In this document: piece by piece, positions 35,427 through 52,263 of the stretch | Layout: the number at the start of each line of letters is the position of its first letter | How positions within the stretch are numbered: position 1 is the stretch's first letter | Assembly (NCBI GenBank): GCA_963738405.1 | Contig: CAVTWJ010000016.1 | Coordinates: 1-64,000 of the forward strand | DNA from: a candidate division FCPU426 bacterium | GTDB lineage: Bacteria > Oederibacteriota > Muellerivitia > Muellerivitales > Muellerivitaceae | DNA length: 64,000 nt | Direction of reading: 5' to 3' | The notes under the pieces: model-generated | Told to the model about the DNA's origin: nothing | The model's input: only the letters and a program-made list of their open reading frames with translations | Database searches by the model: none | Program-made: the position numbers and the translations under genes

Positions 35427-35440
35427 AAGAAAAATCGAAA

Positions 35441-36488: not shown

Positions 36489-36860
36489 TTACTTCGCGGG
36501 CGGGTTCTGCGAAAGATAAACCTTCAAGGCCTCGATATCTTCTTCCTTCATGGCCAAGAAATGAAGCCCTAAGCCTTCCGAGTTGGACCAAACCACCTCG
36601 GCAAAGGCCGCGATCGCCGTGGTTTGTCCCGGAATGGTCATATCCAGCCGCAGGATGCTTCCCACATTGACGGCGACATCGGCGACCAAATAAAGCCCGC
36701 CCATACTTAAGTCCATTGTCCGGCTGGTTTTATTCTTATGTTCACGGTTGAAAACCGTTTCAATTTCTTTCGAATCCTCGATCAGGCGGAATTTGACTGG
36801 GACATGGGCCGAAACCCGTGGGTGAACCCTTTTCTCAAGGTACATTTTCGCATCAGGCAT
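36489..36860 (-). CDS. Single-domain PilZ protein (c-di-GMP receptor)
   Basis: RVHPR (RxxxR) and DLSMGG (DxSxxG) motifs; AAGGAG RBS. Confidence 0.88.
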   Translation of the reverse strand: MPDAKMYLEKRVHPRVSAHVPVKFRLIEDSKEIETVFNREHKNKTSRTMDLSMGGLYLVADVAVNVGSILRLDMTIPGQTTAIAAFAEVVWSNSEGLGLHFLAMKEEDIEALKVYLSQNPPAK

Positions 36861-37029
36861 GGTTGCGCTCCTTAAATCGTTCAGGGCCATAAACAAACTT
36901 CTGAACTAAAATACATCACATATTACCCTTTTGGCCCAGCTCCGCCTCTTACAAATAAGTTAAATAAACACGGATTTATATGAGATTTTAACTTTTTTGG
37001 TAAAACGACTGCTACCGGTTGATCAAACG

Positions 37030-37074
37030 AAAAAGAAAAACCCCGCGAAAACATTACTTTGTCTTCACGAGGTT
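37030..37074 (-). terminator. Intrinsic terminator
   Basis: AACCTCGTGAAGAC-loop-GTTTTCGCGGGGTT followed by a U-rich tract, downstream of the 37143 gene. Confidence 0.7.
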
Positions 37075-37142
37075 CGATTTCGTCTAAAGTTGCGAGGGTC
37101 ATTTTCTTGTCTTTTTGGACTCCCCCGTCTCAAACATAGTGT

Positions 37143-37466
37143 TTAGCGAATATTGTGTTTCTTCATTAATTCCTTTGTAGAAACCCATCCACCCTTTTTC
37201 TTAGAGCGGTTAATAGACTCTTCTATTTCCTTAGCCTCTTTTTCATTCGCATTAATGAAATTCAAAGGAACATGTTTAGTAATAACACGCTCAATTTCGT
37301 GAGTAATTTTACGAATAGTCGTATTAGCACCAACTTCATCACTAAGAACAACACTAACAGCATGGTCGATAAATTGGTTCATATTCTTGTAATGAAGCTT
37401 GGTTATTACCAAACGTTCTAGTTTTCGCTTTCCAATTGCAGGGCGATAGCTAATTGGAGCTTCCAT
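37143..37466 (-). CDS. Putative RHH antitoxin
   Basis: ISYRP strand + helices + YKNMNQFIDHAV (RHH-like); C-terminal EIEESI...GWVSTKELMKK typical of RelB/ParD-like antitoxins; GGGAGG RBS. Confidence 0.55.
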   Translation of the reverse strand: MEAPISYRPAIGKRKLERLVITKLHYKNMNQFIDHAVSVVLSDEVGANTTIRKITHEIERVITKHVPLNFINANEKEAKEIEESINRSKKKGGWVSTKELMKKHNIR

Positions 37467-37534
37467 AACACGCCTCCCGCTCTCTATTGTTATTTAATAT
37501 ATTAACATATTAACATAATTACTAAAAGATGCTT

Positions 37535-37837
37535 TTATGATGCTTTTTGTGGCTTTGGACGTAGTCGAAATCGGTCAATTTCCACAGCCTGAATTCGGTG
37601 TTGTTTATCGTAAGTGATCTTACCTTGAATATCGAAAATGACATGGTTATCCGATTTGAAATAACCTTTGCCTTCCTTTTCATGAATGTCTCCCCATTTT
37701 TCGGGCGGGAAATCATCTAACTCTCTTAAGTAACGTCCTGCAAGCCCACACACGGAAGGATTTTCTAACAACTCCGCAAATTCCTTTTGGGCTTGCGGAG
37801 ATAATGAAACCTCAATTTTACCAATGTTATCTCTCAT
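37535..37837 (-). CDS. Putative RelE/ParE-fold toxin
   Basis: 100 aa; VSLSPQAQKEFAEL start and terminal AVEIDRFRLR strand resemble RelE/ParE. Confidence 0.5.
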   Translation of the reverse strand: MRDNIGKIEVSLSPQAQKEFAELLENPSVCGLAGRYLRELDDFPPEKWGDIHEKEGKGYFKSDNHVIFDIQGKITYDKQHRIQAVEIDRFRLRPKPQKAS

Positions 37838-37954
37838 TGCTGTTATTTTCCGCGCCTTAGTTTTTTTGGCTTCTGCGACAGTCTATTGAGCGAACTTCTT
37901 ATTTGAGGTCCTGATCAACCTATTTTCCGCTTCTCAAGTCCGTTAAAAGGTAGG

Positions 37955-39259
37955 TTATTTTTCCACTTCCGGGCTTTTATCGAGCGTCACTTTGATTCCT
38001 ATTGAAAAGCTTTGATAGCTGGTATTAAGCGCGCTGGACCCGCTCGGTGAAATGACCTGGGGCGGATAACTTGGATTATTTGAGAAAAGGCTGACAACCG
38101 GGAATTGCCCGGAAAGAAAAATTTGAAAATCGTCGTTGAGGTCGTAACCCAAATAAAGCCCCGTCTCGAGACCATAGGAACCGAAGGTGTAATCTGGGGC
38201 TGGAATGTCATAGGCAACGGTTGTTCCTGCCGATGGCACTGTTTTATCAATCATCACATTGGTCATGCTGATGCTTTGGTAGGTCAACCCGGCAAAGGGA
38301 CTGATTTTAAGCGGGCTTTCCAAAGGCAATTCGTAAAGAAACCGAATATCAAAACCGATGGCCGTCAGGTTCGGGTTTACGTTGCCGCTAAGATAGGATC
38401 TTTGATCGACCGTTTGATCCTTGGTGATTTCCGACGTAAAAAGAGAAATAAACCCGCCGATTTCCAAGGAGATATTTCCGCCGAAAGAACGTCCAATGGC
38501 CCCGTTGAAGCCGTAGCCCCCGGTGACTTTGGGGAGGAAAAAATAAGGCTGGGCCTGACCCAACCCGACAGCGGTACCGTTTGTCTGGCCCAATTCATTC
38601 CCGTCGAAATTGTTCCAAAGACCCGGCAACGAAGCCCCTACACGGAAATAATCTCCCGCTCCCTCAATTTTCGCTTCCCTTCCAGTACCCGCTTCTGAGG
38701 TTGCGGATGGCGCGGGTAGCTTGTTGGGAGTTTCTTTTAATGGGGTCTCAACCTGGGGCGTCGTAGAAGGAGTGGTCTGTTCTGTTCCAAGACTTTCCAA
38801 ACCTTTTTTTGCCGTTTCATTTTGCGGGTCGGCTTCCAACGCGGCCATGTAATAGGTCCTGGCCAAATTCAAACGGCTCTCGGACCCCTGGTGATTCTGG
38901 TAAATATCCCCTAAGTCCGCGTTCGCTTGCGCGACTTCGGGCGTTTTAGTTCCTAAATCCACCGAAGCCAAGGCCTGGGGCAGTAAATCGAGGGCTGTCT
39001 TGTAATCTTGGGATGTGTAGGCCGCCAGGCCTCTTTTGAATAGATCAGAACCCGATGTAGTGCCAAGTAAAGAGACAGGGATGGTGAGCGTCGTTTCAGG
39101 GGTTGGGATTATAAGTTGAGTTGCGTCTTGGGCCGTAGGCGAGGCAGTGGCTTCTTGCCCTCTCACTTGTGCCGCCAAACCCATCACGCAAACAAACAAT
39201 AAAGCCTGGAGACCGATGAATGACAAATCGAATTCTTTTCGCATTGAAGTTCCGTTCAT
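37955..39259 (-). CDS. Secreted protein: Pro/Thr linker + TPR + OM beta-barrel
   Basis: Signal peptide, TPR (ADLGDIY...YYMAALEADP), barrel strands (SPFAGLTY, FSIGIKVTL). Confidence 0.7.
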   Translation of the reverse strand: MNGTSMRKEFDLSFIGLQALLFVCVMGLAAQVRGQEATASPTAQDATQLIIPTPETTLTIPVSLLGTTSGSDLFKRGLAAYTSQDYKTALDLLPQALASVDLGTKTPEVAQANADLGDIYQNHQGSESRLNLARTYYMAALEADPQNETAKKGLESLGTEQTTPSTTPQVETPLKETPNKLPAPSATSEAGTGREAKIEGAGDYFRVGASLPGLWNNFDGNELGQTNGTAVGLGQAQPYFFLPKVTGGYGFNGAIGRSFGGNISLEIGGFISLFTSEITKDQTVDQRSYLSGNVNPNLTAIGFDIRFLYELPLESPLKISPFAGLTYQSISMTNVMIDKTVPSAGTTVAYDIPAPDYTFGSYGLETGLYLGYDLNDDFQIFLSGQFPVVSLFSNNPSYPPQVISPSGSSALNTSYQSFSIGIKVTLDKSPEVEK

Positions 39260-39311
39260 TTAATTTTACCAATTGAGATTTTTTCTAAAAGCGAACTACT
39301 TTAACCTTTTT

Positions 39312-40202
39312 TTACGATTCAAAATACCGATCCGCGAGGAATTTTTGAAAAATCTCCCGAAGCTCCGAAATCGGGGCTAGGTTTTCGTAGAGATGGTAGG
39401 TATCTCCCGATTTGGTTGTCATGGCTAAATAATATTTTTTAAAGTTTCCCCTGTTCGAATCGTACTTGACGTTGAATTTGCTGATATCTTCCCTCACCAA
39501 GACCTTGCGCCGAAAGGCGGTCCGGACCGCCGCCTCGTTATCGTTGACCGTCAGGGCAAAAACCCTGCCGACAAGGAAGGGATAAAGCCCTACAAGGACG
39601 ACCGCGAGGAAAAACACCACCCTCCATTGGTCCAGCCTGATCTCCTGATCAGAAAAGACTAAGGTCAAGGTCAGCAAGATAATCCCATACCAAGCGAGGG
39701 TCCCAAGGATGTAGGTGGTTTTGGAGCTTAGGCGAATCGGAAATTCGGGAAGCCTTAAGTTTTTGCCGCATCGTTTCGATATTTCATTCAAAAGCCCGTC
39801 ATAGAACTTCAACTTGCGGCTGATCTCAATGGTCTTTTTTCGGGTAAGGTCCTGAAGCAGGTAGGCTTCCTTCGTGTAATGTTCGTGAAGATAGGCTACT
39901 TCCCCCCAAGAGATAAATTCTTTCGGTCTCTTTCCCAGCAGATCGTAAATTCCCTTGAAGTCATAGGCCACTCTACGGTTTCTTTTAGCCCAAATCATCA
40001 CTTCCACAGCCAGGCATATCACCACCAATATCCCAAAAATGATGATCGTACTTTTGGTGCTATTGTCGTGGATTGAGTAACTAAGGCCCATGCCGAAGAG
40101 AAGGACCAGAATAATGGCCAGCACCAACAACTGCCCCGCCCAATAGCCAGGTTGGGGCACTTCGTAGATATCGTCGTAAGAGGCGGATTCGTTATCGATC
40201 AA
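39312..40202 (-). CDS. Membrane protein with two TM-pair + bacterial PH-like repeats
   Basis: Two TM hairpins, each followed by a 'GI...FISWGEV' / 'VLVREDISKF' type segment. Confidence 0.6.
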   Translation of the reverse strand: MIDNESASYDDIYEVPQPGYWAGQLLVLAIILVLLFGMGLSYSIHDNSTKSTIIIFGILVVICLAVEVMIWAKRNRRVAYDFKGIYDLLGKRPKEFISWGEVAYLHEHYTKEAYLLQDLTRKKTIEISRKLKFYDGLLNEISKRCGKNLRLPEFPIRLSSKTTYILGTLAWYGIILLTLTLVFSDQEIRLDQWRVVFFLAVVLVGLYPFLVGRVFALTVNDNEAAVRTAFRRKVLVREDISKFNVKYDSNRGNFKKYYLAMTTKSGDTYHLYENLAPISELREIFQKFLADRYFES

Positions 40203-40207
40203 AAAAG

Positions 40208-40360
40208 CTAACCCTTAGTGCGGATGGTGGTTGAAGAAATACAATAAAAACCCAAAATTAGAAACATGAAAAGTCCATAAAACAAGAACCCTTGGAATTG
40301 GTAAAAGAGAGCCCATCGGATCAATTTCGGAGTTAAAGCAACGCTTATTTCACGGTCCAT
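40208..40360 (-). pseudogene. Truncated paralog of the YcxB-like gene (50 aa)
   Basis: AGGAG RBS; MDREISVALTPKLIRWALFY vs MDREISVHLNAGLFRLAFLY of 40368-40934; below the ORF-track cutoff. Confidence 0.7.
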
Positions 40361-40367
40361 ATAACTC

Positions 40368-40934
40368 CTAGGGCGAGTGGCGCATCAGCAAATACATGCA
40401 AACCGCGAAAACAAAAAGAAAAAAAGCCAGCCTCATATATCCACCTTTCACCCCTCCATTTTCCTTCAGCACTTTTTCGGTCAAAAAATATTTTAGTTCG
40501 TCATCCAAAAGTTCCGTAGGGATGACATAGGCCTTTTCCGATCCGTAGATCAGCCTCCAAAGTTTCGTGTCTTTTTGAATTCTCTTGATCACGTTCCACG
40601 GGTTTTGTTCTGAACCCAGTTCAGAATTAACATAAAACCATTCATCGGTGAACCGGTACTTGATCAGGGGCTCCTTCATTTTTTGAATCATGACCATGTT
40701 CTTGTGATAGAGGTTGTAAAAAATAAACCAGCACCAAAGAAGAATGAGGACGATGGGCATGATTTTTCCAAAATAATCGCGCGGAATAAGAGGGCCGCTA
40801 GTTATCAAGTGCAGCAGGATTGCAGCAGCCCCCAAAATAGGAAAAGCGAACCCAATAATGATGGATTTAATCCGATATAAAAATGCCAAACGAAAAAGCC
40901 CGGCATTGAGATGAACGCTTATTTCCCGGTCCAT
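40368..40934 (-). CDS. YcxB-family membrane protein
   Basis: Two TM helices then YRFTDEWFYVNSELGSEQNPWNVIKRI...AYVIP. Confidence 0.7.
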   Translation of the reverse strand: MDREISVHLNAGLFRLAFLYRIKSIIIGFAFPILGAAAILLHLITSGPLIPRDYFGKIMPIVLILLWCWFIFYNLYHKNMVMIQKMKEPLIKYRFTDEWFYVNSELGSEQNPWNVIKRIQKDTKLWRLIYGSEKAYVIPTELLDDELKYFLTEKVLKENGGVKGGYMRLAFFLFVFAVCMYLLMRHSP

Positions 40935-41030
40935 ATCGCCCCTCTTAAAACCGAAATTCACGCCATTGCTTATTCAGTTTACCCAAGCGAATCGGAAAGG
41001 CAAAGCACGCAGAAAGGGCAAGAGTAATGG

Positions 41031-41183
41031 TTATTTATTAGTTTTATGAGGATACAAAGGGGGCTCGTTCTGGATGATCTCCCCAGTTAATCGGTAGAGG
41101 TCGTCACCTGCTTCGAGACCACAAGTCGAGGAGCACGTCTTGGTTGCACCAATGTCCGAGAAAGACATTGGTGTATTGGTCAT
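41031..41183 (-). pseudogene. Truncated Rhs leader fragment (50 aa)
   Basis: MTNTPMSFSDIGATKTCSSTCGLEAGDDLYRLTGEIIQN matches the start of 42232-43737, then diverges and stops. Confidence 0.8.
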
Positions 41184-41455
41184 TTAATCGGAATGGATTT
41201 TGAGAGGGTGTTTAACTGGGTATTCAGGTCGGCCACCTGGGCATCGGTGAGGGTTTTGGAGTTGTTCGCTTTGAGGTCGGCTGATTCCTGTTTGCGGATC
41301 GCGTCCACCTGGGTTTTGAGGGTCTTGGCCTGGGCTTTGGTCAGTTTCCCAGCCTTAACTTCCCTCTGAATTTGGATGTTCTGCTGGCGAAGGCGAACCG
41401 TCAGGCGGTTCATGGGAGTATTGGGGAGGACTTTGGGTGCGGTGGGGGTGGGCAT
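41065..41455. repeat. 391-bp direct repeat, copy B
   Basis: Ungapped match to 43619-44009 (offset 2554 at both ends). Confidence 0.92.
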
Positions 41456-41518
41456 GGTTGTGGCAAAGGCCACACTTTGAGTCAGGACCAATGCAAAAAC
41501 GAATGATGAGTATTTCAT
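41180..41518 (-). CDS. Small secreted helical protein, copy B
   Basis: Signal peptide + MPTPTAPKVLP...QREVKAGKLTKAQAKTL; near-identical mature part to 43734-44072. Confidence 0.85.
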   Translation of the reverse strand: MKYSSFVFALVLTQSVAFATTMPTPTAPKVLPNTPMNRLTVRLRQQNIQIQREVKAGKLTKAQAKTLKTQVDAIRKQESADLKANNSKTLTDAQVADLNTQLNTLSKSIPIK

Positions 41519-41677
41519 AATTCCTTCTTTATCTCAAAATTTAGTATTAGCACAGTTCTCTATTACTTACTCAATTTCTTCAACCGGGAGGCTTAATGAC
41601 CTCGACGGAATTTTTGCACCATAAGGCGAAGCCATACTTAAAAAAACAAAAAACAACATTTCAGCTTTAGTAGATTT

Positions 41678-42220
41678 CTATCTTTCATGGCCATCCGTTT
41701 TAAACGCCTTTTCCATTGATGAGGCAAATTTATTGAGATTTTCGTTTTTGTTTGCAGAACACTTTTTGATTATTCCCATCATTTTTTTAAGTTCACTATC
41801 GTCGATTTCTTGAACTATTTTGTAATTGTCAATTATCAACAAGACCTGATAATTGGCCTCTGATTGCATTTTTTCAGTGCTTAAAAACAATGATTTAATT
41901 TTTAAAGACATCCCCTTTAAAAGAGAGTCACTGACAATGAATTGATTCGGATTCATCGACGTATCTTTTATCAAATAATTCAATTCACTAACGCTTAGTT
42001 CTTTTTCTGTAATCGTAATTAAAGGTTGCATCAAATCAGAACTGCCAATGAAATAAATAAATATTCCATTTGTGCAATTGGAATATTTATCAATACCGAC
42101 ACCCCCCAAAGGGCCGCTCGCAATCGAACTGTGTGTTTTTACAAGGTTATTATCTGCAAACAACTTTATAGAAAATATCCCCATCAAAAAAAGTAATAAA
42201 ACAAAAATTATATTTTTCAC
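41678..42220 (-). CDS. Putative immunity protein (signal peptide)
   Basis: AT-rich, directly after the Rhs-CT, GAGGG RBS, similar to 44120-44770. Confidence 0.7.
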   Translation of the reverse strand: MKNIIFVLLLFLMGIFSIKLFADNNLVKTHSSIASGPLGGVGIDKYSNCTNGIFIYFIGSSDLMQPLITITEKELSVSELNYLIKDTSMNPNQFIVSDSLLKGMSLKIKSLFLSTEKMQSEANYQVLLIIDNYKIVQEIDDSELKKMMGIIKKCSANKNENLNKFASSMEKAFKTDGHER

Positions 42221-42231
42221 TCTTCCCTCGT

Positions 42232-43737
42232 TTAGTAGAGGTAATTAAATACAACGGGATCAGCAGTTACGTTATATATTGATCCTTCTTTAGTAACTTT
42301 CCAACCCCAATCAATTTCTCCAAGGTAACTATTAAAGCTAGTCGTATTCCAATTATCTAACCCAACAAGATAAGCTTGAGCTTCCCAGTGACAACTTCCT
42401 CCATTATTATCAATATCCTTTCTCGGTCTCTGTGATTGGTCAGTAAAACGGGCATTCCCCTTATCTGTTTGTTGTAATGCTTTCTCTATAGTGGTTGGAT
42501 AAAGCAAAGGCCATGGCGAACCTTGTGGAAATCCATTTGCAATTGCTTGCGGACTATTCGGAATAAATCCATCAAAGTACCAATCATCTTTCGGTTGCCT
42601 GGATGTTAAGGGTATATCTGTTTTTACCCTTTGCACCCATCTATAAACATTAAATTTCGGTATTCTATTTACAGTTAAGGCATGCGCATTAAGTAAAAAA
42701 CCACAACTATGGCCATCGTTGTCTACTTCGCTTATTGGTAAAAATTCGAACCTAATTGTTCCTGCCAAATCATGAGCCAAAGCCGACCAAAATACATGTG
42801 GCTCACTGCTAATTCCGCCATCATCATTCCCACTTGGGTCAAACCTGTTCTCGGGATTATTAGAAGCAAATTCGTATTTGTGGAGTGTTAGCGGGTCTTC
42901 CGTTTCCCCCTCATAACTATCCATCGTCTCAAATCTTCCGATGCCTGGATTCATCCATCTCGCTCTCAGATTGTAAAAACCTGTATTCGGATCGAGCTGT
43001 TCCCCATCGAATTGACAAACATTCTGGGTTGATCCAGTCGAAGAAATAGAATTCCCAAACGCATCCAGGGTGTAGGTATCTCCCGTAACTTGGCCGGCTG
43101 AATTCATCAGGTAACGAACTGATCCCTGTCCGTCATATCCGTAGTAAGAAAGGGTGAAGGTGCCAGGGACAAAGGAGCCGTTAGAAATTGCCTCTTGGTC
43201 TTCCGCTATTCGGCTTATCCCATAGGTGTAAGTCCTTCCCACTGCCCCGCCTTGGAGTTCATCCATCACTTGGGCGTAGCCGGTAAGGTTGGTGGAGCTG
43301 ATTAAGTAGTTGGTGGTCACGCTATTGACCGTCTGGGAAACCTTGTTACCATCCCCGTCATAGATGAAAGATTCATTCAAGCCTGAGCCCGTCACGGTTA
43401 AAAGGCGGTCTAGGGAATCATAGGTATAGGTCTTGGCCGTGGGGTCGGTGAGGGTGTTTCCATCGCTGTCGTAGGTGTAACCCGCCGTCAGGCGGTCGTT
43501 TAGGTCATATTGGCCCGTGAAGGTCTGGCCGGGAATCTGTGACAGGTCGGAGGTCCTTTGGTTGCGGTTGCCTACGGGATCGTAGGTATAGCCAATAGCC
43601 CCATTTATGCTCACCGGGTCGTTTTGGATGATCTCCCCAGTTAACCGGTAGAGGTCGTCACCTGCTTCGAGACCACAAGTCGAGGAGCACGTCTTGGTTG
43701 CACCAATGCCTGAAATGGGCATTGGTGCGTAGATCAT
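42232..43737 (-). CDS. Short Rhs/YD-repeat protein with C-terminal toxin-like domain
   Basis: YTYD repeats, core FDGEQLD...YNLRARWMNPGIGRF...DPSG, AT-rich CT. Confidence 0.92.
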   Translation of the reverse strand: MIYAPMPISGIGATKTCSSTCGLEAGDDLYRLTGEIIQNDPVSINGAIGYTYDPVGNRNQRTSDLSQIPGQTFTGQYDLNDRLTAGYTYDSDGNTLTDPTAKTYTYDSLDRLLTVTGSGLNESFIYDGDGNKVSQTVNSVTTNYLISSTNLTGYAQVMDELQGGAVGRTYTYGISRIAEDQEAISNGSFVPGTFTLSYYGYDGQGSVRYLMNSAGQVTGDTYTLDAFGNSISSTGSTQNVCQFDGEQLDPNTGFYNLRARWMNPGIGRFETMDSYEGETEDPLTLHKYEFASNNPENRFDPSGNDDGGISSEPHVFWSALAHDLAGTIRFEFLPISEVDNDGHSCGFLLNAHALTVNRIPKFNVYRWVQRVKTDIPLTSRQPKDDWYFDGFIPNSPQAIANGFPQGSPWPLLYPTTIEKALQQTDKGNARFTDQSQRPRKDIDNNGGSCHWEAQAYLVGLDNWNTTSFNSYLGEIDWGWKVTKEGSIYNVTADPVVFNYLY

Positions 43738-44009
43738 CTAATCGGTATCGACTTGGAGAGGGTGTTTAACTGCGCATTCAGGTCGGCTACCTGGGCGTCG
43801 GTGAGGGTTTTGGTTCCGTTGGCTTTGAGGTCGGCTGATTCCTGCTTGCGGATCGCGTCCACCTGGGTTTTGAGGGTTTTGGCTTGGGCCTTGGTCAGTT
43901 TGCCCGCCTTCACTTCCCTCTGGATTTGAATGTTCTGCTGACGAAGCCGGATCGTCAGGCGGTTCATAGGGGTATGCGGAAGAACTTTGGGGGCGGTGGG
44001 CGTTGGCAT
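43619..44009. repeat. 391-bp direct repeat, copy A
   Basis: Ungapped match to 41065-41455. Confidence 0.92.
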
Positions 44010-44072
44010 TCCCGCGCTAAAAACGGTTGTTTGAACCACAATAAAAAAAAGAATAAAAATTAATAATTTCAT
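43734..44072 (-). CDS. Small secreted helical protein, copy A
   Basis: Signal peptide; stop overlaps the Rhs start (ATGA). Confidence 0.85.
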   Translation of the reverse strand: MKLLIFILFFIVVQTTVFSAGMPTPTAPKVLPHTPMNRLTIRLRQQNIQIQREVKAGKLTKAQAKTLKTQVDAIRKQESADLKANGTKTLTDAQVADLNAQLNTLSKSIPIR

Positions 44073-44119
44073 CTTTGGTAGTCCCTTTAAACCTCTTTAA
44101 TCGAAATAGCCAACACACC

Positions 44120-44770
44120 TTACATTCCAAAACGGCTTTCAAGATCAGAAATATGGTCATAAAGGTCTTTGTATTTTTCTTTAGAAATATTTTTTATACG
44201 GTCAAAAATCAATTTTGATTTTTTTAAACTCAAAACATTCATTTTATTGCATTCATCTGCATTCCCGCTTTCGACAACCACAACATTAAATTTTCCGGAT
44301 GGCAGATCCATGTTACTTGTTCGATTATTTTTTACGGGATATTTGAGTTCAATAGTACTGGTTACCGGTTTATTTACACTGCCGACATCAAAAACCGAAA
44401 CGCCAAAGCTTTTCCCAATCTCAACTTCCGATTCTTTAGAAAAATAACCTTTGAATTCGTTCAATATTTTTAAAAAATCAACCTTGGTAACTACATATTG
44501 ATTAATCAAGTCATAAAAATTCAAATTATTTAGTTCGGTATTCAAGATTTTGAAACCATTCGTATTACCAAAAAAAAGTTTTATTTCTTTGGAATCCATC
44601 TTTTTCATACTAATGATCATTGGAAATGTCGGGTGTGTTTCCGAGCCATAATATTCAACCCATATCGCATTAAACTTTTCATCGTTTTTATTTTGGGTTA
44701 TCCCAGCAAAAAGTGATTTGAAAAGGAATAAACAGCAAAAAATTAATAAGAATATATTTATGGCCTTCAT
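44120..44770 (-). CDS. Putative immunity protein (signal peptide)
   Basis: AT-rich, TAATG-coupled to the upstream Rhs-CT. Confidence 0.7.
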   Translation of the reverse strand: MKAINIFLLIFCCLFLFKSLFAGITQNKNDEKFNAIWVEYYGSETHPTFPMIISMKKMDSKEIKLFFGNTNGFKILNTELNNLNFYDLINQYVVTKVDFLKILNEFKGYFSKESEVEIGKSFGVSVFDVGSVNKPVTSTIELKYPVKNNRTSNMDLPSGKFNVVVVESGNADECNKMNVLSLKKSKLIFDRIKNISKEKYKDLYDHISDLESRFGM

Positions 44771-45652
44771 TAATAACCCCCTTGGTAATCAATCGTTATT
44801 GGCTCTGGTCTTAAATTCAGCGTGCGTCCATTTATAACATCAAAAGCAAAACCATAACGAAATGAAACCATTGGTTGAAAGTTAAGGTCGTTCAGAGAAT
44901 CGGTAGCTACAAATGAAAGGTCCGCTTCAAATGTTGTGTGTTTCGTAGTTAATACAGCACGCGGCATATCGAAAAAGACTTCATCGTAAGATGGAAAAAG
45001 TTTTTGCGCATTGTTTGCCTCAGTGGCGTTTTGATAGTAATACGGTATTGAACTTTTTGGCGGTACATCCAAATGCCAACCAGAAGGTTCTCCAGGTATT
45101 GAATAACTCGCATTTACATATTGAACCCAGTTATAAATCGGATTTTTAAATGTGACGTTTGGGTTTGATCGATTTTTTGTAAGCGCACCTAAAATAATTT
45201 GAAGCCCCGCTGTTTGTTCATGATGCAACTCAGAATCATTTGATATGTAAATGCCTTTATATACCAATTGATCAACTCGGATTGCCGAAAACTGAAGTGA
45301 ATTAGGCCATAAAACTTTTGGTTCAGACGCAGTCAATGACATCATGTCATCATTCCCAGTTGGATCGATACGATCAACTGGATCATTAGAATCATAAACG
45401 TATTTGTGCAAGCTCAATGGGTTTTCTTGGGCACCTTCATTTGTGTCCATGCTCATGAACCGCCCCAGGCCTGGGTTCATCCACCGCGCCCTTAGATAAA
45501 TTAGGCCTGTGTCGCTGTCGGCGTATTCACCGAATGCGCCCACGTTGTTGGCAGTTCCCGCGCCTGAACTGGAAATCAAATTCCCAAAGGCGTCCCAGGT
45601 ATAGGCATCGGTAATTTGCCCGCCATCATTCATCAAGAAGCGGACATTCTGT
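44770..45652 (-). CDS. Orphan Rhs core + CT (5'-truncated)
   Basis: QNVRFLMNDGGQITDAYTWDAFGN...YLRARWMNPGLGRF...DPTG; homology stops ~45652 with an in-frame TGA just upstream. Confidence 0.85.
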
Positions 45653-45784
45653 AAGAGAATTAGGGGTCAGGCCTACATTTTCCATTCACTCAACTTGATG
45701 GTTCGTGGTAAGTATATTATTGGGTAGGTATGCAAATGCTCGTACAGGCATTTGCATCACCAAAACTCACCCAATAACTTGTTG

Positions 45785-47800
45785 TTATTGGACATGTATC
45801 TTTTCCACCTTAGAAACCCGCGGCGGCGGGCCGGGGTACACCCCAAAGATAATCGCCACCGGCTGGGTGGCAACCACCTCTCCGGGGTAATGCAGATCGC
45901 TTTGAACCGTCAAAGCGCCCTCCACCCGGAAATCATCCTCGAAATAGTCCGCCTTGACGCATTCGGCTGGTTTTGTTGCCTTGAAAAAGACGTTGAGCTT
46001 CTCGTCCTGAACCTTTTGCAGATAGGACGGGGGAAAAAAGTCGTAAAAGAACTTCTCAGAATAGTTTTCCCATACCTCGTTTTTGAGGTATCCCAGCCAG
46101 ACGGGAGTGTCCCGGTAGGTCGCCCCGAAGAAATAACCGGCAAAATCCTGAACGAACATCTTTTCGGATGGAATCCGGCTTTGGTATTGAACAGGGATCG
46201 AAAGGGTTGGAGCCGCTTGGGCCGGAACCACAGGTGGAGGCCCTTGATTTGGCGCCGCCGCGCTTTTTCTGATCTTTTGATGTTGCCGTGGTTGTGCCGG
46301 CGCAACCGCGGCGAGTATAGATGACGCGGCTGGTGTCAATATCGCCTTTGGCGACGGCGGAGAGCCAGACGTTTTGGCTTGCTCCCAGCCAGTGGCAGAG
46401 TCATAAACCCTTTCGGCTTCCCCTTCCACCCATCCCACCACCCGGCCTGGGTGGCGCCAAGCCCAAAGGATTGCCCAAAGGACCAGGGCGGTGAAACCCA
46501 GCTGGATCAGCCCGTTGACCCATTTCCCCTCGGCACAAAGGCGGATGCCCTTTTCCAGCATTCGATAGGGCCATTTCACTAACCATTCAATTGCCCCAAT
46601 CAGCTTGTGCCACACCCATGCCAAAGACTTCCACCATAGGGATTTGGATGCCTTAGCTTTTGAGGCTGTTTTGCCCTTACCGCCTCCTTTGGACCCAGAC
46701 TTTGGCTTGCCCTGAGTTTTAGCCGTGCCCAAGGCTGAGGAGGCTTTGGTAAGGTGACCGGCCACTGCCGTTAGGAACTTGTGCAACCCGCCCTGAGCGG
46801 GAATGGTGGTATGGGTCTTTTGTTTCTCATATTCCTCGGGCGGGGTACCCGCCAAGACCGCCTGTACCAGGGCCTTCACCTTGGCTTCGGTCATCTTGTG
46901 ATCTATGGCCACCTTTAGCGCCCGTAGAACCAGGTCTTGTGTTTCGGGGGGAATGGGCGGGTAGGGCCATAGTTTCTGGGGTGCCAGCTGGGCCGAGGCC
47001 TCAAGCCGAGGCCCGTGACTTGCTTGTCCCGGCTCAATGGGGGTATCAGGAGCCGGGATCACCATTTTCTTCTTCACCCCCGGCTTTAGACCCGTTCCGG
47101 GGCCCAAACCCGCCAATTGAAAGGCCGCTCGGTCCGAAAATTCCCACTTTTTGCGATTCGAATTGCTAGCGTTGCTAGCAATTGACGGCTTTAGGGTGGA
47201 TGAATTGCTAGCAACGCTAGCAATTAAAGCCCTTGATTCAGGATTTAGGAGCGGTAACAAGCGTATGGCTCGATTTACTTTTACTTCATCTATCTTCCAT
47301 TTGTCCGCAATCTGCCTCTGGGTAATGTCCGGGTTGGATTTAATCTTTAGTTCTATGTAAAGGTAATCCGCCCACCAGCCCCTTTTTCTGACTTTATTGT
47401 CCCAATAGAGAAGATCGGCGGCTTCTTCGGGGGTCGGGTTGTGGATGAACCCGTCAATGGTCTCCCATTGAAGCAGTTCGGCGGCCCTGTCCCGCAGTTC
47501 CCCGCCGTAGATCAGGTAATTGAAATCCCCCAGCTCCCAAGGCTTGCCATCCGCCCTTAGCCGGGGGTCATCGGGATGAAGTTGGGCTCCCCCCGCCAGG
47601 GGGTTAGCCTTATCAGGCCCCACCTGGATGGGATTCTGGAGCCCCCTTTGGGCCATATCATCCGCCTGATCCTTAATTTCTTGTTCGGTGGGCTTACCGG
47701 GGTTGTCCGGGTTGCGGCGGAGATTCTTTCTGGGCAGGGGCTGTTTGCCTGGGAACATTTCCGGCAATAACGCCAAAACATCTTCGATGGTTACGGGCAT
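45785..47800 (-). CDS. ParB-family protein fused to TM segment and C-terminal periplasmic domain
   Basis: NPDNP, GLQNPIQV, IYGGELRDRA (ParB N-domain), HTH TQRQIADKWKIDEVKVNRAIRLL, TM LIQLGFTALVLWAILWAW; GGAGG RBS before ATG 47800. Confidence 0.8.
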   Translation of the reverse strand: MPVTIEDVLALLPEMFPGKQPLPRKNLRRNPDNPGKPTEQEIKDQADDMAQRGLQNPIQVGPDKANPLAGGAQLHPDDPRLRADGKPWELGDFNYLIYGGELRDRAAELLQWETIDGFIHNPTPEEAADLLYWDNKVRKRGWWADYLYIELKIKSNPDITQRQIADKWKIDEVKVNRAIRLLPLLNPESRALIASVASNSSTLKPSIASNASNSNRKKWEFSDRAAFQLAGLGPGTGLKPGVKKKMVIPAPDTPIEPGQASHGPRLEASAQLAPQKLWPYPPIPPETQDLVLRALKVAIDHKMTEAKVKALVQAVLAGTPPEEYEKQKTHTTIPAQGGLHKFLTAVAGHLTKASSALGTAKTQGKPKSGSKGGGKGKTASKAKASKSLWWKSLAWVWHKLIGAIEWLVKWPYRMLEKGIRLCAEGKWVNGLIQLGFTALVLWAILWAWRHPGRVVGWVEGEAERVYDSATGWEQAKTSGSPPSPKAILTPAASSILAAVAPAQPRQHQKIRKSAAAPNQGPPPVVPAQAAPTLSIPVQYQSRIPSEKMFVQDFAGYFFGATYRDTPVWLGYLKNEVWENYSEKFFYDFFPPSYLQKVQDEKLNVFFKATKPAECVKADYFEDDFRVEGALTVQSDLHYPGEVVATQPVAIIFGVYPGPPPRVSKVEKIHVQ
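47161..47225. repeat. Two 23-bp palindromes in inverted orientation inside the ParB-like gene
   Basis: AATTGCTAGC-GTT-GCTAGCAATT (47161-47183) and AATTGCTAGC-AAC-GCTAGCAATT (47203-47225). Confidence 0.92.
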
Positions 47801-48005
47801 ACATACCTCCGGCCTATAGGGTTGTACGGCTGATTTTGGATATTTAAATTGTGTAGAAATAATTTTCAAGAAAAAACGGGGGAAACACTTAAACAGTTTG
47901 GACAATTATTGTGCGGTTTTTTGAAACAACCGCGCTTTATCCTTAGATAAATTCAAATTTGCGAATAAAAAGGGCTGTCGCTTTGGGACAAAGACCCTCA
48001 GAAAT

Positions 48006-48035
48006 AAAAAAAGCCGCCGGGGTTTCCGGCGGCTT
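48006..48035 (-). terminator. Intrinsic terminator
   Basis: GCCGCCGG stem followed by T7 on the minus strand, after the 48053 gene. Confidence 0.85.
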
Positions 48036-48052
48036 ATGAATAAATAAAAGAA

Positions 48053-48364
48053 TTACTTGGCGGCGCAAATCTTCAACTGGTCCAAAGCCGCATTGATGGC
48101 GCCGATCGCGTCCATTTTATGGCCGTTGAAATCATTCTTGGCCTCCCAAAGGGTATGCTTGGCGTTGCGCAATTGCTGGGCGGCTTTCCAAATCATGGGG
48201 TGGTAATGCCTCGCCCCGGCCTTGAAATCGAAATGGGCGTTATCGTCGCTCCCAACATTAACCGATAAATCGACTCCATCGGCTTTCACAACCACGGGCA
48301 TCGCCAACAGTCCCAACAAGGCCATTCCCAAAACCCCAACTCTCAAATAATTCGAAACGTTCAT
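48053..48364 (-). CDS. Small secreted helical protein
   Basis: GGGAGG RBS, signal peptide, HP...DFNGHK..A helical hairpin. Confidence 0.75.
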   Translation of the reverse strand: MNVSNYLRVGVLGMALLGLLAMPVVVKADGVDLSVNVGSDDNAHFDFKAGARHYHPMIWKAAQQLRNAKHTLWEAKNDFNGHKMDAIGAINAALDQLKICAAK

Positions 48365-48486: not shown

Positions 48487-50031
48487 TTAACCGGCCTTGT
48501 TCGATTTGGTTCGCTTGACCATCGCCTCTACCAGGGCCGGAAGGGTATGGGGTTTGGCCTCGACCGCCACTTTGCCCCCCCACTTCTTCACGGTATCGCC
48601 CGTGATCGGCCCCACCACCGCAATTGAAACATCTTTCAGGACTTGTTTCCGTTGAACGGAAGTAAAGGCTCCGCAGAAATGATCCACCGTCGAGGAAGCG
48701 GCGAACACCAGCCAGTCCACCCCACCTCCCTTGAAAAACAAATTTTGAAGACTTTGTTTGGCTTGTTTCGGCACACGGGTTTCATAGAGGGACCAAAGGG
48801 TAACCTGGGCTTTTTGTTTTCTCAAGGCCTTCTCCAGTAAATCCCTTCCCTCCTTGGCCCTAGCGAAAAGAATCCGCTTCCCTTCCAGCTTCTGGCCTAT
48901 CTTGCCGAAAGATTGAACCAGCCCTTCCTGTTTGTAGTCTTTAGGAACCAGGTCCGCCTTGAGTCCGTACTTTTTCAGCGCCATGGCCGTGACCTCGCCC
49001 ACGCAGGCGATCTTGAGGCCGGAGAGGCTTCGCACATCCAATTTAGAAACCGTCAGGTGGGAAATTAAAATATCCACCGCATTAGCGCTGGAAAAGATAA
49101 ACCAATCGTAAGAGGAAAGGTTTTTGAGAATCTTTTTCCCCTCAGCTTTGAGGGGCAGGGCCGCGATTTCAATGGTAGGAATTTCAACCACTTCCCCGCC
49201 TTGGTCTTCCAACAATTGAGTGAGAAAACTGGCCTGCTCCCTGGATCGGGTTACGAGTATTTTCTGGCCCGAAAGGGCTTTATATTTCATCCAACTCAAG
49301 GGGTTCATCAGTTCCACCACCTTTCCCATCACGACCGTGCAGGGAGCCCTTAAGCTCCTTTTTTTGACCCCATCAACGATATCAATTAGTTTTCCAACAA
49401 CGGCCCGTTGGGATCCGGTGGTTCCCGATTGGATGACCGCTACCGGGGTCGAGGGGTCTTTGCCTTCGCCTATGAGCCTCTCACAGATTCCCGGCAAAGT
49501 ATGCAGACCCATAAGGAAAACCAGCGTACCTTCGGTTTGAGCCAAATGGGCCCAATCAATGCTCGTTTCAGCCTTGGCCGGGTCTTCATGGCCCGTCAGG
49601 ATAGTCAGCATCGAATTAAAGGCCCGGTGGGTCACCGGAATGCCCGCATAGGCGGGAACGGCAATGGCGGAGGATATCCCCGGCACCACTTCAAAGGGGA
49701 TTCCCTTTTCCACCAGGGCCAGGGCTTCTTCGGCTCCACGGCCAAACACAAAGGGGTCGCCGCCCTTGAGCCGGACGACGATTTTGCCCTGGAGGGCCTT
49801 ACGCACCAGAAGGTTGTTGATAGCTTTTTGGCTCAAGGCCCCCTTTTGGGAACGGTGCCCCCGGAATATTTTTTCGCAACTTGGGGGAATCAGGCTTAGG
49901 ATTCTTTGGGGTATCAATGCGTCGTAAATGACCACATCCGCTTTGGCTAGAACCTCCACAGCCCGAAGGGTTAAGAGGCCCGGATCGCCCGGACCGGCCC
50001 CGACGAGATAAACCCTGCCCATGGGGTTCAT
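48487..50031 (-). CDS. cobA: Uroporphyrinogen-III C-methyltransferase / synthase fusion (CobA-HemD)
   Basis: VYLVGAGPGDPGLLT, RLKGGDPFVFGRG, then HemD (ILVTRS, FSSANAV, CVGEVT). Confidence 0.95.
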   Translation of the reverse strand: MNPMGRVYLVGAGPGDPGLLTLRAVEVLAKADVVIYDALIPQRILSLIPPSCEKIFRGHRSQKGALSQKAINNLLVRKALQGKIVVRLKGGDPFVFGRGAEEALALVEKGIPFEVVPGISSAIAVPAYAGIPVTHRAFNSMLTILTGHEDPAKAETSIDWAHLAQTEGTLVFLMGLHTLPGICERLIGEGKDPSTPVAVIQSGTTGSQRAVVGKLIDIVDGVKKRSLRAPCTVVMGKVVELMNPLSWMKYKALSGQKILVTRSREQASFLTQLLEDQGGEVVEIPTIEIAALPLKAEGKKILKNLSSYDWFIFSSANAVDILISHLTVSKLDVRSLSGLKIACVGEVTAMALKKYGLKADLVPKDYKQEGLVQSFGKIGQKLEGKRILFARAKEGRDLLEKALRKQKAQVTLWSLYETRVPKQAKQSLQNLFFKGGGVDWLVFAASSTVDHFCGAFTSVQRKQVLKDVSIAVVGPITGDTVKKWGGKVAVEAKPHTLPALVEAMVKRTKSNKAG

Positions 50032-50961
50032 TTAGACCCGTCCATAATGGTCAAGAATTTCCTGTCCGCCGTTCTCAATGAAAAACTGGGCGAGACGCTC
50101 GCCCAAGGCCAGGGGGTTATCTTTCAAATCCCTCATGCTGTCTTTAATGATAATTTCACCGGTGGAATCGGCCACGACCCCCGTGAGACGGAGTACTTCC
50201 CCTTCCAAAATAGCCAGGGCGCCCACCGGCACCCGGCAGCCGCCCTGCAGGGCCTTAAGGAAAGATCTTTCGGCCATGGCGCAGATGCGGGTGGCGGGGT
50301 CATTCAAGGGGCGAAGCTTTTCCAGCATGTCATGGTCGTGGGAAAGCGCCGTGATGACCAGGATGCCCTGGGCCGGGGCGGGAACCATGACTTCGGGGTC
50401 TAAAAATTCGGTGATTTCCGCTTCCCTTCCCAATCGCTTCATGCCCGCGGCGGCCAAAAGGATGGCGTCCACCTCGCCCGCTTGAAGTTTTTTGATTCGA
50501 GAATCCACGTTGCCGCGGATAGGCACCACCGTTAGATCGGGACGGGCGGCCTTCAGCTGGGCTTCCCGGCGGGGCGAGCTGGTGCCCACCTTGGAACCGG
50601 CGGGCAGTTGGGCCAGCAGATGGCCCTCCCTTGAAATGAGAGCATCCCTGGGATCTTCCCGGGCGATGAGTGCGGCATAGACGATGCCGTGGGGCAAGGT
50701 CGTGGGCACATCCTTGAGGCTGTGGATGGCGGCCCGGATGGTGCCGTTGAGGAGTGCGTCATCTAATTCCCTCGTGAAAAGGCCGGGAGGAATGCCCGTC
50801 AAATCGGTAGGCGCCGGTTGCACGCCCCAAGCGTCGCCCTGAGTTTTAACTACCCGCAATTCCAATGGTTCATTAGGCAAAAGCTTGGCCATTTCGTTTA
50901 GCACCATGCCCGCTTGGGCTAGGGCCAGTTGGCTTCCGCGGGTGCCGATGATTAAAGGCAT
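50032..50961 (-). CDS. hemC: Hydroxymethylbilane synthase
   Basis: GTRGSQLALAQ, HSLKDVP, GTSSPRR, RGNVDSR, GGCRVP. Confidence 0.96.
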   Translation of the reverse strand: MPLIIGTRGSQLALAQAGMVLNEMAKLLPNEPLELRVVKTQGDAWGVQPAPTDLTGIPPGLFTRELDDALLNGTIRAAIHSLKDVPTTLPHGIVYAALIAREDPRDALISREGHLLAQLPAGSKVGTSSPRREAQLKAARPDLTVVPIRGNVDSRIKKLQAGEVDAILLAAAGMKRLGREAEITEFLDPEVMVPAPAQGILVITALSHDHDMLEKLRPLNDPATRICAMAERSFLKALQGGCRVPVGALAILEGEVLRLTGVVADSTGEIIIKDSMRDLKDNPLALGERLAQFFIENGGQEILDHYGRV

Positions 50962-50988
50962 GGAACGCCTAAGGGGAGGCTGTTGAAT

Positions 50989-52263
50989 TTAAGCATCGGG
51001 ATGTTCCTCAAAAAGGCTGAAGATTTCACTCAACATGCGGGCATACTCAAACCGGTCCGTTTCCTGGGTGATGGTTTTTAAATTGACCGAAGGTTCGTGT
51101 AGAAGCTTCCCCACCAGGTCATGGGTGAGCTTTTCCACCGCCCTGCGTTCTTTTTCGCCAAGGGACGGGTTCTTTTTGAAAAACTCGTCCAGTTCCCTCT
51201 TACGGGCCGTTTCGTATTTATTCCTCAACCTTACCACCGTAGGCACCAGTTCCAGGGTGTTGAGCCAGGAACAAAGTTTTTCCACTTCCTCTTTTAGAAT
51301 CGCTTCGGCGTTTTGGGAGGCCTTTTGGCGCTCATCCCGGTTGCGGTTGGCCAATTGGGAAAGGTCGTCGATGTTATAGAGATAGAGGGAGTTGATTCCC
51401 GAGGCCGATTCCTCCACGTTGCGGGGTACCCCTGTATCAATGATGAAGAGGGGGTTGCCCTGCCTTTGTCTCATCGCCTCCTCCAACCTTTCGCGGGTCA
51501 GGAGGGGCTGCGGCCCGGCCACAGAAGTGAGGATAATATCGACCTGGGATAATTGGGAGAGGGCATCCTCCAAGGGCAGGGCCTTGCCGCCCAGGGAGGC
51601 GGCCAGGGTTTTCGCCTTTTCCAGTGTTCGGTTGGCCAGGCGGAAACCCCTGACCCCCGCGTCGAACAGGTATTTGGCGGTTAGCTCGCTCATTTCCCCG
51701 GCGCCGATTAAGAGAACCTGCCTTTGGGCGAGCGGGCTGAAGATTTTCCCCGCCAAATCCACCGCCACCGAGGAAACATTGGTGGGCATGCGCGCGATTT
51801 CAGTTTGGGTGCGCACCCTTTTGGCGGCGGAAAAGGCCCGGTGGAAAATGCCGTTCAAGGTGGAACCGAGGGTGCCATTGGATGCCGCGGTTTCATAAGC
51901 TTCCTTGACCTGGCCTAAGATCTGGGCTTCCCCCAGCACCATCGAATCAAGCGAGCTGGCGACCCGAAATAAGTGCAGGAAGGCCTCGGGCCCCTCGTAA
52001 TGGTAAAAGTACCGGGAAATTTCCTTGGGACGAAGCCGGTGGTGTTTGAACAAACTCCGGTGCACCGTTTCCAGGGCTTCTTTCTCCCGGTCGGTGGCGA
52101 AGTAAAACTCCACCCGGTTGCAGGTGGAAAGAAAAACCGCCTGGGGAGCCGATTCTTTCAAACCTTGGAGTGTTTCCCCCACCTGCTCAGGGGTCAGGGC
52201 GTATTTTTCCCGGACCGATACGGGAGCGGTGCGGTGATTGAGCCCGTAGGCGATGAATTTCAT
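50989..52263 (-). CDS. hemA: Glutamyl-tRNA reductase
   Basis: LSTCNRVE, LDSMVLGEAQILGQVK, IGAGEM, PRNV. Confidence 0.96.
   Translation of the reverse strand: MKFIAYGLNHRTAPVSVREKYALTPEQVGETLQGLKESAPQAVFLSTCNRVEFYFATDREKEALETVHRSLFKHHRLRPKEISRYFYHYEGPEAFLHLFRVASSLDSMVLGEAQILGQVKEAYETAASNGTLGSTLNGIFHRAFSAAKRVRTQTEIARMPTNVSSVAVDLAGKIFSPLAQRQVLLIGAGEMSELTAKYLFDAGVRGFRLANRTLEKAKTLAASLGGKALPLEDALSQLSQVDIILTSVAGPQPLLTRERLEEAMRQRQGNPLFIIDTGVPRNVEESASGINSLYLYNIDDLSQLANRNRDERQKASQNAEAILKEEVEKLCSWLNTLELVPTVVRLRNKYETARKRELDEFFKKNPSLGEKERRAVEKLTHDLVGKLLHEPSVNLKTITQETDRFEYARMLSEIFSLFEEHPDA

Follow-up and report, generated by a model that had tools for sequence, protein, structure and literature searches.

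Background

ParB-family proteins have roles in segregation (ParB), in nucleoid occlusion (Noc) and in transcription (KorB and VirB), and to our knowledge those described so far are either soluble or peripherally bound to membranes. Canonical ParB proteins bind nucleotides through three motifs, QPR (box I), GERRxRA (box II) and ENxxR (box III), while their ParA-activating motifs sit in a disordered N-terminal peptide. A separate group of proteins, the VirB8-type subunits of type IV secretion systems (T4SS), share a layout of one transmembrane helix with an NTF2-like domain placed after it, outside the cytoplasm, and VirB8 proteins have a short cytoplasmic tail only. Here we report on a gene at positions 45785–47800 (minus strand) of a 64,000-nucleotide stretch of contig CAVTWJ010000016.1, from a candidate division FCPU426 bacterium (assembly GCA_963738405.1). 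Its product appears to combine a ParB module, a transmembrane helix and a VirB8-like domain in one chain. The whole stretch is referred to below as the window.

Noc is described as a link between the membrane and specific DNA sites that is controlled by a cytidine triphosphate (CTP) switch (PMC8429893). According to a Pfam-based survey published in 2025, long bacterial ‘single-domain’ ParB-fold proteins probably hold domains that are missing from Pfam (10.1101/2025.10.10.680097), and the protein analysed here would be a concrete case of such a protein with unrecognised domains. In a preliminary description of the locus, made from the sequence without database searches, the architecture had not been recognised as a described one. 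In agreement with this, no description of a protein combining ParB, a transmembrane helix and a VirB8-like domain was found in the literature searched, which included the same survey of ParB-fold fusions (Kaljevic et al. 2025). Its main text on bioRxiv (10.1101/2025.10.10.680097) makes no mention of transmembrane, VirB8, NTF2 or periplasm. In the main text of the PMC12704722 version, the words transmembrane, membrane-anchored, VirB8, NTF2, periplasmic and secretion do not occur, nor do transmembrane, VirB8, NTF2 and DotI in six supplementary files of that version.

A divergent ParB-type N-terminal module

The coding sequence (protein P0002) is one intact open reading frame (ORF) of 671 amino acids plus stop codon, as had been proposed, and lies on the minus strand; all the elements listed in the preliminary description, from the ParB N-domain to the terminal domain, were found in the stated order and size. 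Residues 1–330 are predicted to comprise a divergent ParB NTPase-fold domain and a helix-turn-helix (HTH) region. The former (residues 1–123, 47432–47800; all protein features given here lie on the minus strand) was modelled by AlphaFold2 (AF2) with a predicted local distance difference test score (pLDDT) of 89–98, and is additionally supported by Foldseek and by a profile match to Spo0J. The latter (residues 124–200, 47201–47431) is indicated by a match to NCBIfam TIGR00180 (parB_part), by alignment with the HTH region of Spo0J and by the HTH families matched by homologues (HTH_24, MarR_2 and HTH_ParB).

Relatives of the N-terminal module were collected from a set of 5.8 billion proteins, of which 8000 candidates were scored, giving 52 proteins at E ≤ 1e-3. 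Precomputed annotation placed the ParB family PF02195 in 44 of these 52, and homologues reach its threshold (for instance P0019, 46.4 bits vs. a cut-off of 26.3). The query itself reached the thresholds of neither curated ParB model (PF02195, TIGR00180), its match to TIGR00180 being weak (E = 5.7e-4 over residues 92–192, 19.7 bits vs. a cut-off of 58.45). A profile built from the 52 sequences (alignment A2) matched the Spo0J structure 1vz0 from Thermus at E = 1.4e-15, including its HTH region, in two stretches flanking a lineage-specific insertion of ~ 32 residues in the N-domain (residues ~ 62–93, 47522–47617). The same profile also retrieved from PDB the structures of Noc (E = 2e-10 to 9e-9), Myxococcus xanthus ParB (~ 3e-8) and KorB (0.026).

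The full-length AF2 model computed on A2 had a mean pLDDT of 79.3, with residues 1–200 at 88–98. When compared with PDB by Foldseek, it was placed closest to Noc (7nfu, E = 2.1e-8), followed by ParB and KorB, the E-values ranging from 2e-8 to 5e-5. Taken with the TIGR00180 and Spo0J matches, this bears out the ParB N-domain and HTH recognised in the preliminary description. Downstream of the HTH, a conserved helical region (residues 223–330, 46811–47134) is marked by near-invariant or invariant columns and contains the motifs LGPGTGLKPG and LWPYPPIPPETQDLV, and its residues 280–330 were modelled at pLDDT 82–95.

Judged from the aligned columns, the nucleotide pocket is conserved yet altered. 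Residues 33–35 read NPG in place of QPR (50/52), and N56 takes the place of the Gln of GxxQP (48/52). Box II is represented by the variant arginine patch GELRDRA (residues 100–106, 47483–47503), which had been noticed from the start, with G100 in 51, E101 in 48, R103 in 51, R105 in 40 and A106 in 49 of the 52 sequences; position 102 is variable across the family (N in 16, R in 14, L in 13). Box III reads DNxxR in place of ENxxR, with D134, N135 and R138 present in 52/52. According to the 2025 survey, nucleotide specificity cannot be reliably predicted from sequence or with AlphaFold 3 (10.1101/2025.10.10.680097).

Two further features set the module apart from the canonical layout. Residues 1–30 are predicted to be folded (pLDDT 95–98) rather than to form a disordered peptide. 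In addition, Pfam recognised no ParB C-terminal dimerisation domain in the protein, the part past residue 330 consisting of a linker, the transmembrane segment and the VirB8-like domain.

A predicted VirB8-like domain at the C-terminus

The last part of the protein (residues 541–671, 45788–46180) was modelled separately on its own alignment. A search with residues 535–671 alone in 1.84 billion representative proteins gave 54 matches at E ≤ 1e-3, of which 25 were at E ≤ 1e-10 and three at E ≤ 1e-30; alignment A3 consists of 58 sequences from these and from earlier matches. The resulting AF2 model was of very high confidence (pLDDT 96.9, predicted template-modelling (TM) score 0.89), and in it four helices precede an antiparallel sheet of five strands.

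All ten PDB matches obtained by Foldseek with E ≤ 0.001 were VirB8-like periplasmic domains, with TM-scores of 0.69–0.78. The best set comprised DotI (3wz4, 3wz5), an IcmL-like protein (5cnl; TMq 0.78, root-mean-square deviation (rmsd) 2.5 Å), TraM of R64 (3wz3) and a Rickettsia VirB8-like protein (4o3v), and CagV, Agrobacterium VirB8, TrwG/TrwJ of R388, TraE, PrgL, TraH and TcpC followed lower in the list. Weaker matches included the inter-membrane-space domains of ARC6/PARC6 (TM-score 0.44–0.54), the NTF2 domain of RsgI9 (rank 42) and Tim44. The same T4SS domains were also retrieved when the full-length model was used as query. The preliminary description had proposed a VirB8/TraE-like NTF2 fold for a terminal domain of ~ 125 residues, to be checked by AlphaFold and Foldseek on residues ~ 545–671, and it is this fold that the predictions returned.

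At the level of sequence the relationship is distant. Identity to the VirB8-like structures is 7–15% and the Foldseek E-values are modest (1e-4), and in Pfam the terminal domain of the query matched no family at E ≤ 1 (PF04335 VirB8 and PF11393 included). Sub-threshold matches to PF11393 (T4BSS_DotI_IcmL) were located inside the terminal domain of three of the 58 A3 members, namely P0065 (E = 1.1e-5, 25.5 bits vs. a cut-off of 27.7), P0069 (E = 1.5e-3) and P0080 (E = 3.6e-3). We read the domain as a probable distant relative of the DotI/VirB8 periplasmic domain, in which the predicted fold agrees and curated sequence thresholds are missed. Protein Atlas matches, taken as leads only, were to unnamed clusters (0.91–0.92) and to ARC6-like_IMS (0.90). 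Complex prediction with two copies of the domain (A3) returned a score of 0.00, which speaks neither for nor against self-association. A homologue search started from the stand-alone protein P0080 gave three matches, with the query among them.

Predicted membrane anchoring and orientation

Between the two folded parts, the chain passes through a flexible linker rich in Lys, Gly and Ser (residues 331–387, 46640–46810; pLDDT < 50 at residues 329–386), the Lys-rich stretch of which covers residues ~ 361–387. This is followed by a Trp-rich amphipathic helix (residues 388–423, 46532–46639), predicted by AF2 and below the Kyte-Doolittle transmembrane threshold, which is probably interfacial. A transmembrane helix is predicted at residues 427–449 (46454–46522), where AF2 also places a helix, and was the sole segment detected in the query by the Kyte-Doolittle hydropathy scan on which the topology is based (19-residue mean of 1.71 vs. 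a threshold of 1.6). Behind it come a juxtamembrane helix (residues 451–470) and an Ala/Pro-rich disordered linker extending to residue ~ 540 (46181–46453 for both), with pLDDT < 50 at residues 470–492 and 498–520. The transmembrane helix, Lys-rich linker (~ 361–387), Trp-rich helix (388–423) and Ala/Pro linker (~ 471–540) of the preliminary description were thus all recovered.

The orientation can be approached from both ends of the protein. The Lys-rich linker lies on the N-terminal side of the membrane segment, so that by the positive-inside rule the ParB module would be cytoplasmic. As for the terminal domain, the stand-alone homologues P0075, P0080 and P0089 (207–211 aa) have nothing ahead of it but an N-terminal signal or anchor of basic-hydrophobic character, and most relatives show an odd number of Kyte-Doolittle segments; both observations would put the domain on the outside. 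Since BamA and TamB are encoded in the window, the host is diderm, and ‘outside’ would mean the periplasm. Collectively, the protein appears to be a bitopic inner-membrane member of the ParB family with an extracytoplasmic terminal domain, as far as these models and hydropathy values indicate.

Distribution of the architecture among relatives

Local BLAST of the domain pieces against 53 proteins (P0002–P0054) found the N-terminal module (residues 1–330) in 53/53. The terminal domain of the query was present in 11 others, and a second type of terminal domain in five (P0004, P0012, P0036, P0039 and P0049), each of these proteins having at least one transmembrane segment. The remaining 35 relatives had neither terminal domain, and 27 of these 35 were also without a Kyte-Doolittle transmembrane segment. 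In P0004, the closest relative, identity reaches 80% over the N-terminal module and 73% over the transmembrane region, yet the terminal domain is of the other type. The outer domains have therefore been exchanged by recombination.

Approached from the terminal domain, the combination was found again. The Pfam family ParB_N was matched in 13 of 31 longer terminal-domain representatives scanned (E ≤ 1e-3, best 1.6e-15), and in 26 of the 58 A3 members at E ≤ 1. The ParB domains of those representatives are 24–41% identical to that of the query and have box II variants of their own (GHVRLxA, GGHRRRA, GQRRxxA). Given this divergence, the union of ParB_N, transmembrane segment and terminal domain would be either old or assembled repeatedly. 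Three proteins (P0057, P0078 and P0087) are without the NTPase domain and have kept the HTH, helical module, transmembrane segment and terminal domain. The same architecture occurs on contigs up to 576 kb long and in many independent clusters, and on these sequence data an assembly chimera is excluded; the concern raised beforehand, that the fusion might be a chimera or a one-off, is answered by this recurrence.

The relatives displayed some further variation. The second type of extracytoplasmic domain is longer than the VirB8-like one, and in P0012 gave a weak match to PDZ_2 (E = 3.9e-4). In P0016 the best Pfam match to ParB_N fell at residues 337–424 and was read as a second ParB_N domain, while P0009 carries two ParB_N stretches; these two and ~ 25 other relatives of 545–580 aa have the same N-terminal module and no predicted transmembrane segment. 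In P0010, P0029, P0071, P0093 and P0006 a low-complexity tail extends past the VirB8-like domain and ends in ...D(K/A)AK(K/R)LLGF/LGL, a conserved motif that could be a candidate sorting or partner-binding peptide. Two paralogues (loci L003 and L004) are present in one metagenome-assembled genome (MAG). The one in L004 (10001–12238) seems to be interrupted: its ORF ends at 238 aa, and the span of the tblastn match contains, on the opposite strand, a gene for a DDE transposase (10843–11886).

Paired palindromes within the coding sequence

Two perfect 23-bp palindromes of the form AATTGCTAGC-GTT/AAC-GCTAGCAATT are located at 47161–47183 and 47203–47225 (47161–47225 together), 575–640 bp inside the coding region. 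They have 10-bp arms and the centres GTT and AAC, and the reverse complement of one gives exactly the other. With up to three mismatches the pattern has two matches in 64 kb, against 0.01 expected, and all four GCTAGC sites of the window fall within the palindromes. They encode IASVASN and IASNASN as part of a 13-residue insertion placed right after the recognition helix and found, in alignment A1, only in P0002, P0004 and P0035. As a separate observation, CTAG is ~ 7-fold depleted in the window (35 observed vs. ~ 250 expected from base composition).

From their sequence we regard the palindromes as candidate cognate DNA sites of the protein, although a structure in the mRNA, or a vestige of an in-frame duplication, would explain them equally well. 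As RNA, the stretch would form a 23-bp hairpin (− 41.8 kcal/mol, z = − 7.15). Rfam gave only generic hairpin matches far under the gathering scores in 45500–48300, and canonical parS had no match in the window at up to three mismatches.

Transcription unit and neighbouring genes

Translation is taken to start at the ATG at position 47800 (minus strand), where a ribosome-binding site, GGAGG (47806–47810), ends 5 nt ahead of it. A longer form of 706 aa with a TTG start is unlikely because homologues begin at the ATG-equivalent ‘MPV/MSV..IEDVL’. The upstream gene is closed by a strong terminator-like hairpin (48011–48035, minus strand; 10 pairs, eight of them GC, with a T-run), and the ParB-like gene would therefore stand at the start of its own transcription unit.

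Altogether, 51 ORFs were scanned in the window, and 26 ORFs at four related loci (L001–L004, all in MAGs). The window is chromosomal, with housekeeping genes such as those for SurE, BamA, TamB, ClpC/McsAB, tRNA ligases and complex I, and the ParB-like gene directly adjoins hemD-cysG, hemC and hemA. Its GC content (0.51–0.56) compares with 0.52–0.59 in its housekeeping neighbours. In LysS, named taxa are at most 59% identical, and the relatives at 80% identity or more come from MAGs. No ParA-type family was detected in the 51 window ORFs, as the preliminary description had noted for the immediate surroundings of the gene, or in the 26 ORFs of the related loci; likewise, neither set contained any T4SS family. 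That description had also pointed to Rhs and T4SS genes as neighbours to look for around homologues; the four related loci showed neither. PADLOC assigned no defence family to the protein or to 12 neighbours, returning weak matches above E = 1e-3 for small ORFs only.

Downstream of the gene and on the same strand, Rhs fragments of low GC content (0.33–0.47) alternate with small ORFs belonging to no family. Since Rhs families are missing from the 26 ORFs of the four related loci, the adjacency in this window looks coincidental. A polymorphic toxin with a ParB fold, ToxB, is described in 10.64898/2026.05.05.722872, and a ToxB-type toxin was considered on account of these fragments. It was rejected: the protein has an HTH and a transmembrane helix, it is not located at the C-terminus of an Rhs/CdiA protein, and Rhs is lacking at the four related loci.

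The fragments themselves (minus strand, within 41180–45636) span 44770–45636 (288 aa) and 42232–43737 (501 aa). Each consists of the end of an Rhs core (TIGR03696, E = 5.5e-16 and 1.3e-14) and a different tail, no full-length Rhs gene is present in the window, and they look like orphan toxin/immunity cassettes. Two 112-aa paralogues with hydrophobic N-termini (minus strand, 43734–44072 and 41180–41518) are 80% identical; the presence of one behind each cassette suggests that the whole cassette was duplicated. The genes for heme synthesis are split by ~ 11 kb, with hemL and hemB at 33192–36445 and hemD/cysG, hemC and hemA at 48487–52263. The stretch in between (~ 36500–48050) holds mostly low-GC ORFs without family and the Rhs fragments, and only the ParB-like gene has a host-like GC content. 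Elsewhere in the window, genes for ClpC, for a UVR protein resembling McsA and for a guanido kinase resembling McsB adjoin those for BamA and TamB (9528–13730 and 1193–9515), thus pairing a protein-arginine-kinase quality-control module of Gram-positive type with a diderm envelope.

Possible functions

We tentatively favour, with slightly less than even confidence, a membrane-integral ParB protein that would hold DNA at the inner membrane, with docking or self-association supplied by its VirB8-like domain. The cytoplasmic ParB module would bind specific palindromic DNA, the best candidates being the two 23-bp palindromes within its own gene, and the altered nucleotide pocket (NPG, GE[L/N/R]RxR, DNxxR) may serve as a switch. 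Because the protein is predicted to be integral to the membrane, DNA bound to it would be kept at the inner membrane, as by a permanently anchored Noc. The VirB8-like domain would replace the ParB C-terminal dimerisation domain, providing either self-association or docking to a partner in the periplasm or envelope, and such docking could fix the position of the DNA or relay an envelope signal to the DNA-binding module.

Several observations weigh against this tether. In Pfam-A the query protein has no match even at E ≤ 10, for which reason its ParB assignment rests on the family profile and predicted fold rather than on a curated threshold. The Arg of box I and the first Arg of box II are gone, so that CTP binding may be lost or changed. 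A second membrane passage, by the helix at residues 388–423, would leave the terminal domain in the cytoplasm, and a few relatives score two or four Kyte-Doolittle segments. No equivalent palindromes were found in the four related loci, and those in the query may instead represent an mRNA hairpin or the trace of an in-frame duplication. Finally, the four related loci have no neighbours in common, hence offering no clue to function.

The alternative that survives best, possible albeit on the unlikely side, is a transmembrane one-component transcription regulator resembling ToxR/CadC, in which a periplasmic NTF2-like domain senses and a ParB-type HTH responds. A ligand or envelope state would control dimerisation and DNA binding, and the intragenic palindromes would be operator or autoregulatory sites; KorB and VirB, likewise, regulate genes. 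Such a regulator would account well for a cytoplasmic module joined to exchangeable outer domains (P0004, and P0012 with its weak PDZ match) and for 27 of the 35 further relatives being without a transmembrane segment, one of them (P0016) with a second ParB_N domain, sensor swapping being typical of signalling proteins. The NTPase-less variants that retain HTH, membrane segment and terminal domain point the same way, as do the two paralogues in one MAG (L003, L004) and the appearance among the structural matches, albeit at rank 42, of an NTF2 sensor domain from RsgI9, an anti-sigma factor. However, the top structural matches are T4SS VirB8-like scaffolds and not sensor NTF2 domains, the palindromes lie 575–640 bp into the coding region instead of in a promoter, and the near-invariant pocket residues are more in keeping with a ParB-type switch than with a simple HTH regulator.

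A further reading, which we consider unlikely, is a nucleotide-gated transmembrane ParB clamp. It would bind palindromic sites on the chromosome, those in its own gene first, and its VirB8/DotI-like periplasmic domain would fix it to a structure of the envelope, so that it would act as a chromosome-to-envelope tether across the inner membrane (LINC-like, or a hard-wired Noc); alternatively, it would be a DNA-docking subunit using the VirB8 scaffold outside a classical T4SS. The place at which DNA is held, or the signal that governs this, would then depend on which of the exchangeable outer domains (VirB8-like or PDZ-containing) is present.

Decidedly improbable is a role as accessory or docking subunit in a machine for type IV secretion, conjugation or DNA uptake whose genes lie elsewhere in the genome. 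The VirB8/DotI-like domain would join the VirB8 layer and the ParB module would deliver DNA to the channel or, in a variant, intercept DNA there as an exclusion or fertility-inhibition factor; proteins of ParB/Srx fold that interfere with T4SS transfer do exist (e.g. Osa). The VirB8-like nature of all ten PDB matches with E ≤ 0.001 (TM-score 0.69–0.78) agrees with this, and so do the sub-threshold PF11393 matches of three of 58 relatives (best 25.5 bits vs. 27.7). However, T4SS families are absent from the 51 window ORFs and from the 26 at the four related loci, the query terminal domain has no Pfam match, and the gene shares the composition of its housekeeping neighbours (GC 0.51–0.56 vs. 0.52–0.59) and adjoins heme-synthesis genes with no obvious conjugative element. 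An assembly chimera or a decayed gene without function is hardly credible, the uncultivated source lineage and the L004 copy interrupted by a transposase gene being the sole points in its favour, against an intact frame with a good ribosome-binding site, an architecture that recurs across many independent clusters, with contigs of up to 576 kb among its sources, high AF2 confidence in all folded parts and strong conservation across 52 sequences.

An integral-membrane ParB protein with an extracytoplasmic domain, if true, would mean that the ParB nucleotide switch also serves to couple DNA across the envelope, and the VirB8/DotI scaffold would gain a role beyond secretion-system operons. The family is small and, among the data examined, limited to uncultivated lineages; it is tractable in vitro, through the cytoplasmic module with the palindromes and through the structure of the periplasmic domain.

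Relation to described proteins

Likeness to ToxR/CadC-type factors and RodZ is one of overall layout only, all having, in the present protein by prediction, an N-terminal cytoplasmic HTH, a single transmembrane segment and a periplasmic C-terminal domain. The HTH of ToxR/CadC is an OmpR-like winged helix and that of RodZ is of Xre type, and these proteins have no NTPase domain and other periplasmic folds. The query had no Pfam match to a winged helix of OmpR type (Trans_reg_C-type), and its cytoplasmic module is, by prediction, of ParB type. ARC6/PARC6 (Ftn2/ZipN-like) proteins are bitopic, with an NTF2-like domain in the inter-membrane space that relays position across a membrane. Their match to the terminal domain (TM-score 0.44–0.54) was clearly weaker than that of VirB8-like proteins, and in place of a DNA-binding ParB they have, on the cytoplasmic or stromal side, a J-like module that binds FtsZ.

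VirB8, DotI (IcmL), TraM of R64, TraE and PrgL have the fold predicted for the terminal domain (TM-score 0.60–0.78, rmsd 2.5–4 Å over ~ 125–140 columns), and a transmembrane helix ahead of that domain, which in the present protein is likewise predicted to lie outside the cytoplasm. What distinguishes the present protein from these subunits is a ParB module of 400 aa on the predicted cytoplasmic side and a gene without T4SS neighbours.

With ParB/Spo0J and KorB, the protein has its N-terminal fold in common (profile E = 1.4e-15 for Spo0J 1vz0 and 0.026 for KorB). The candidate site inside its own gene parallels B. subtilis, where parS lies inside spo0J. Unlike ParB/Spo0J, it has no parA neighbour, canonical parS or C-terminal dimerisation domain among the features searched for above, and differs further in the ~ 32-residue insertion of the N-domain and in the predicted folding of residues 1–30.

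The nearest counterpart is Noc (7nfu, 7ol9), which shares the ParB N-domain and HTH and came first among the structural matches to the full model (E = 2.1e-8). Noc is peripheral, binding the membrane reversibly via a short N-terminal amphipathic helix, and retains the ParB C-terminal dimerisation domain, whereas the protein described here would be anchored by an integral transmembrane helix that comes after the DNA-binding module in the chain and precedes an extracytoplasmic domain; it also has NPG instead of QPR and has lost the first Arg of GERRxR. By analogy, we infer that it works most like Noc, with a nucleotide switch governing the link between DNA and membrane.

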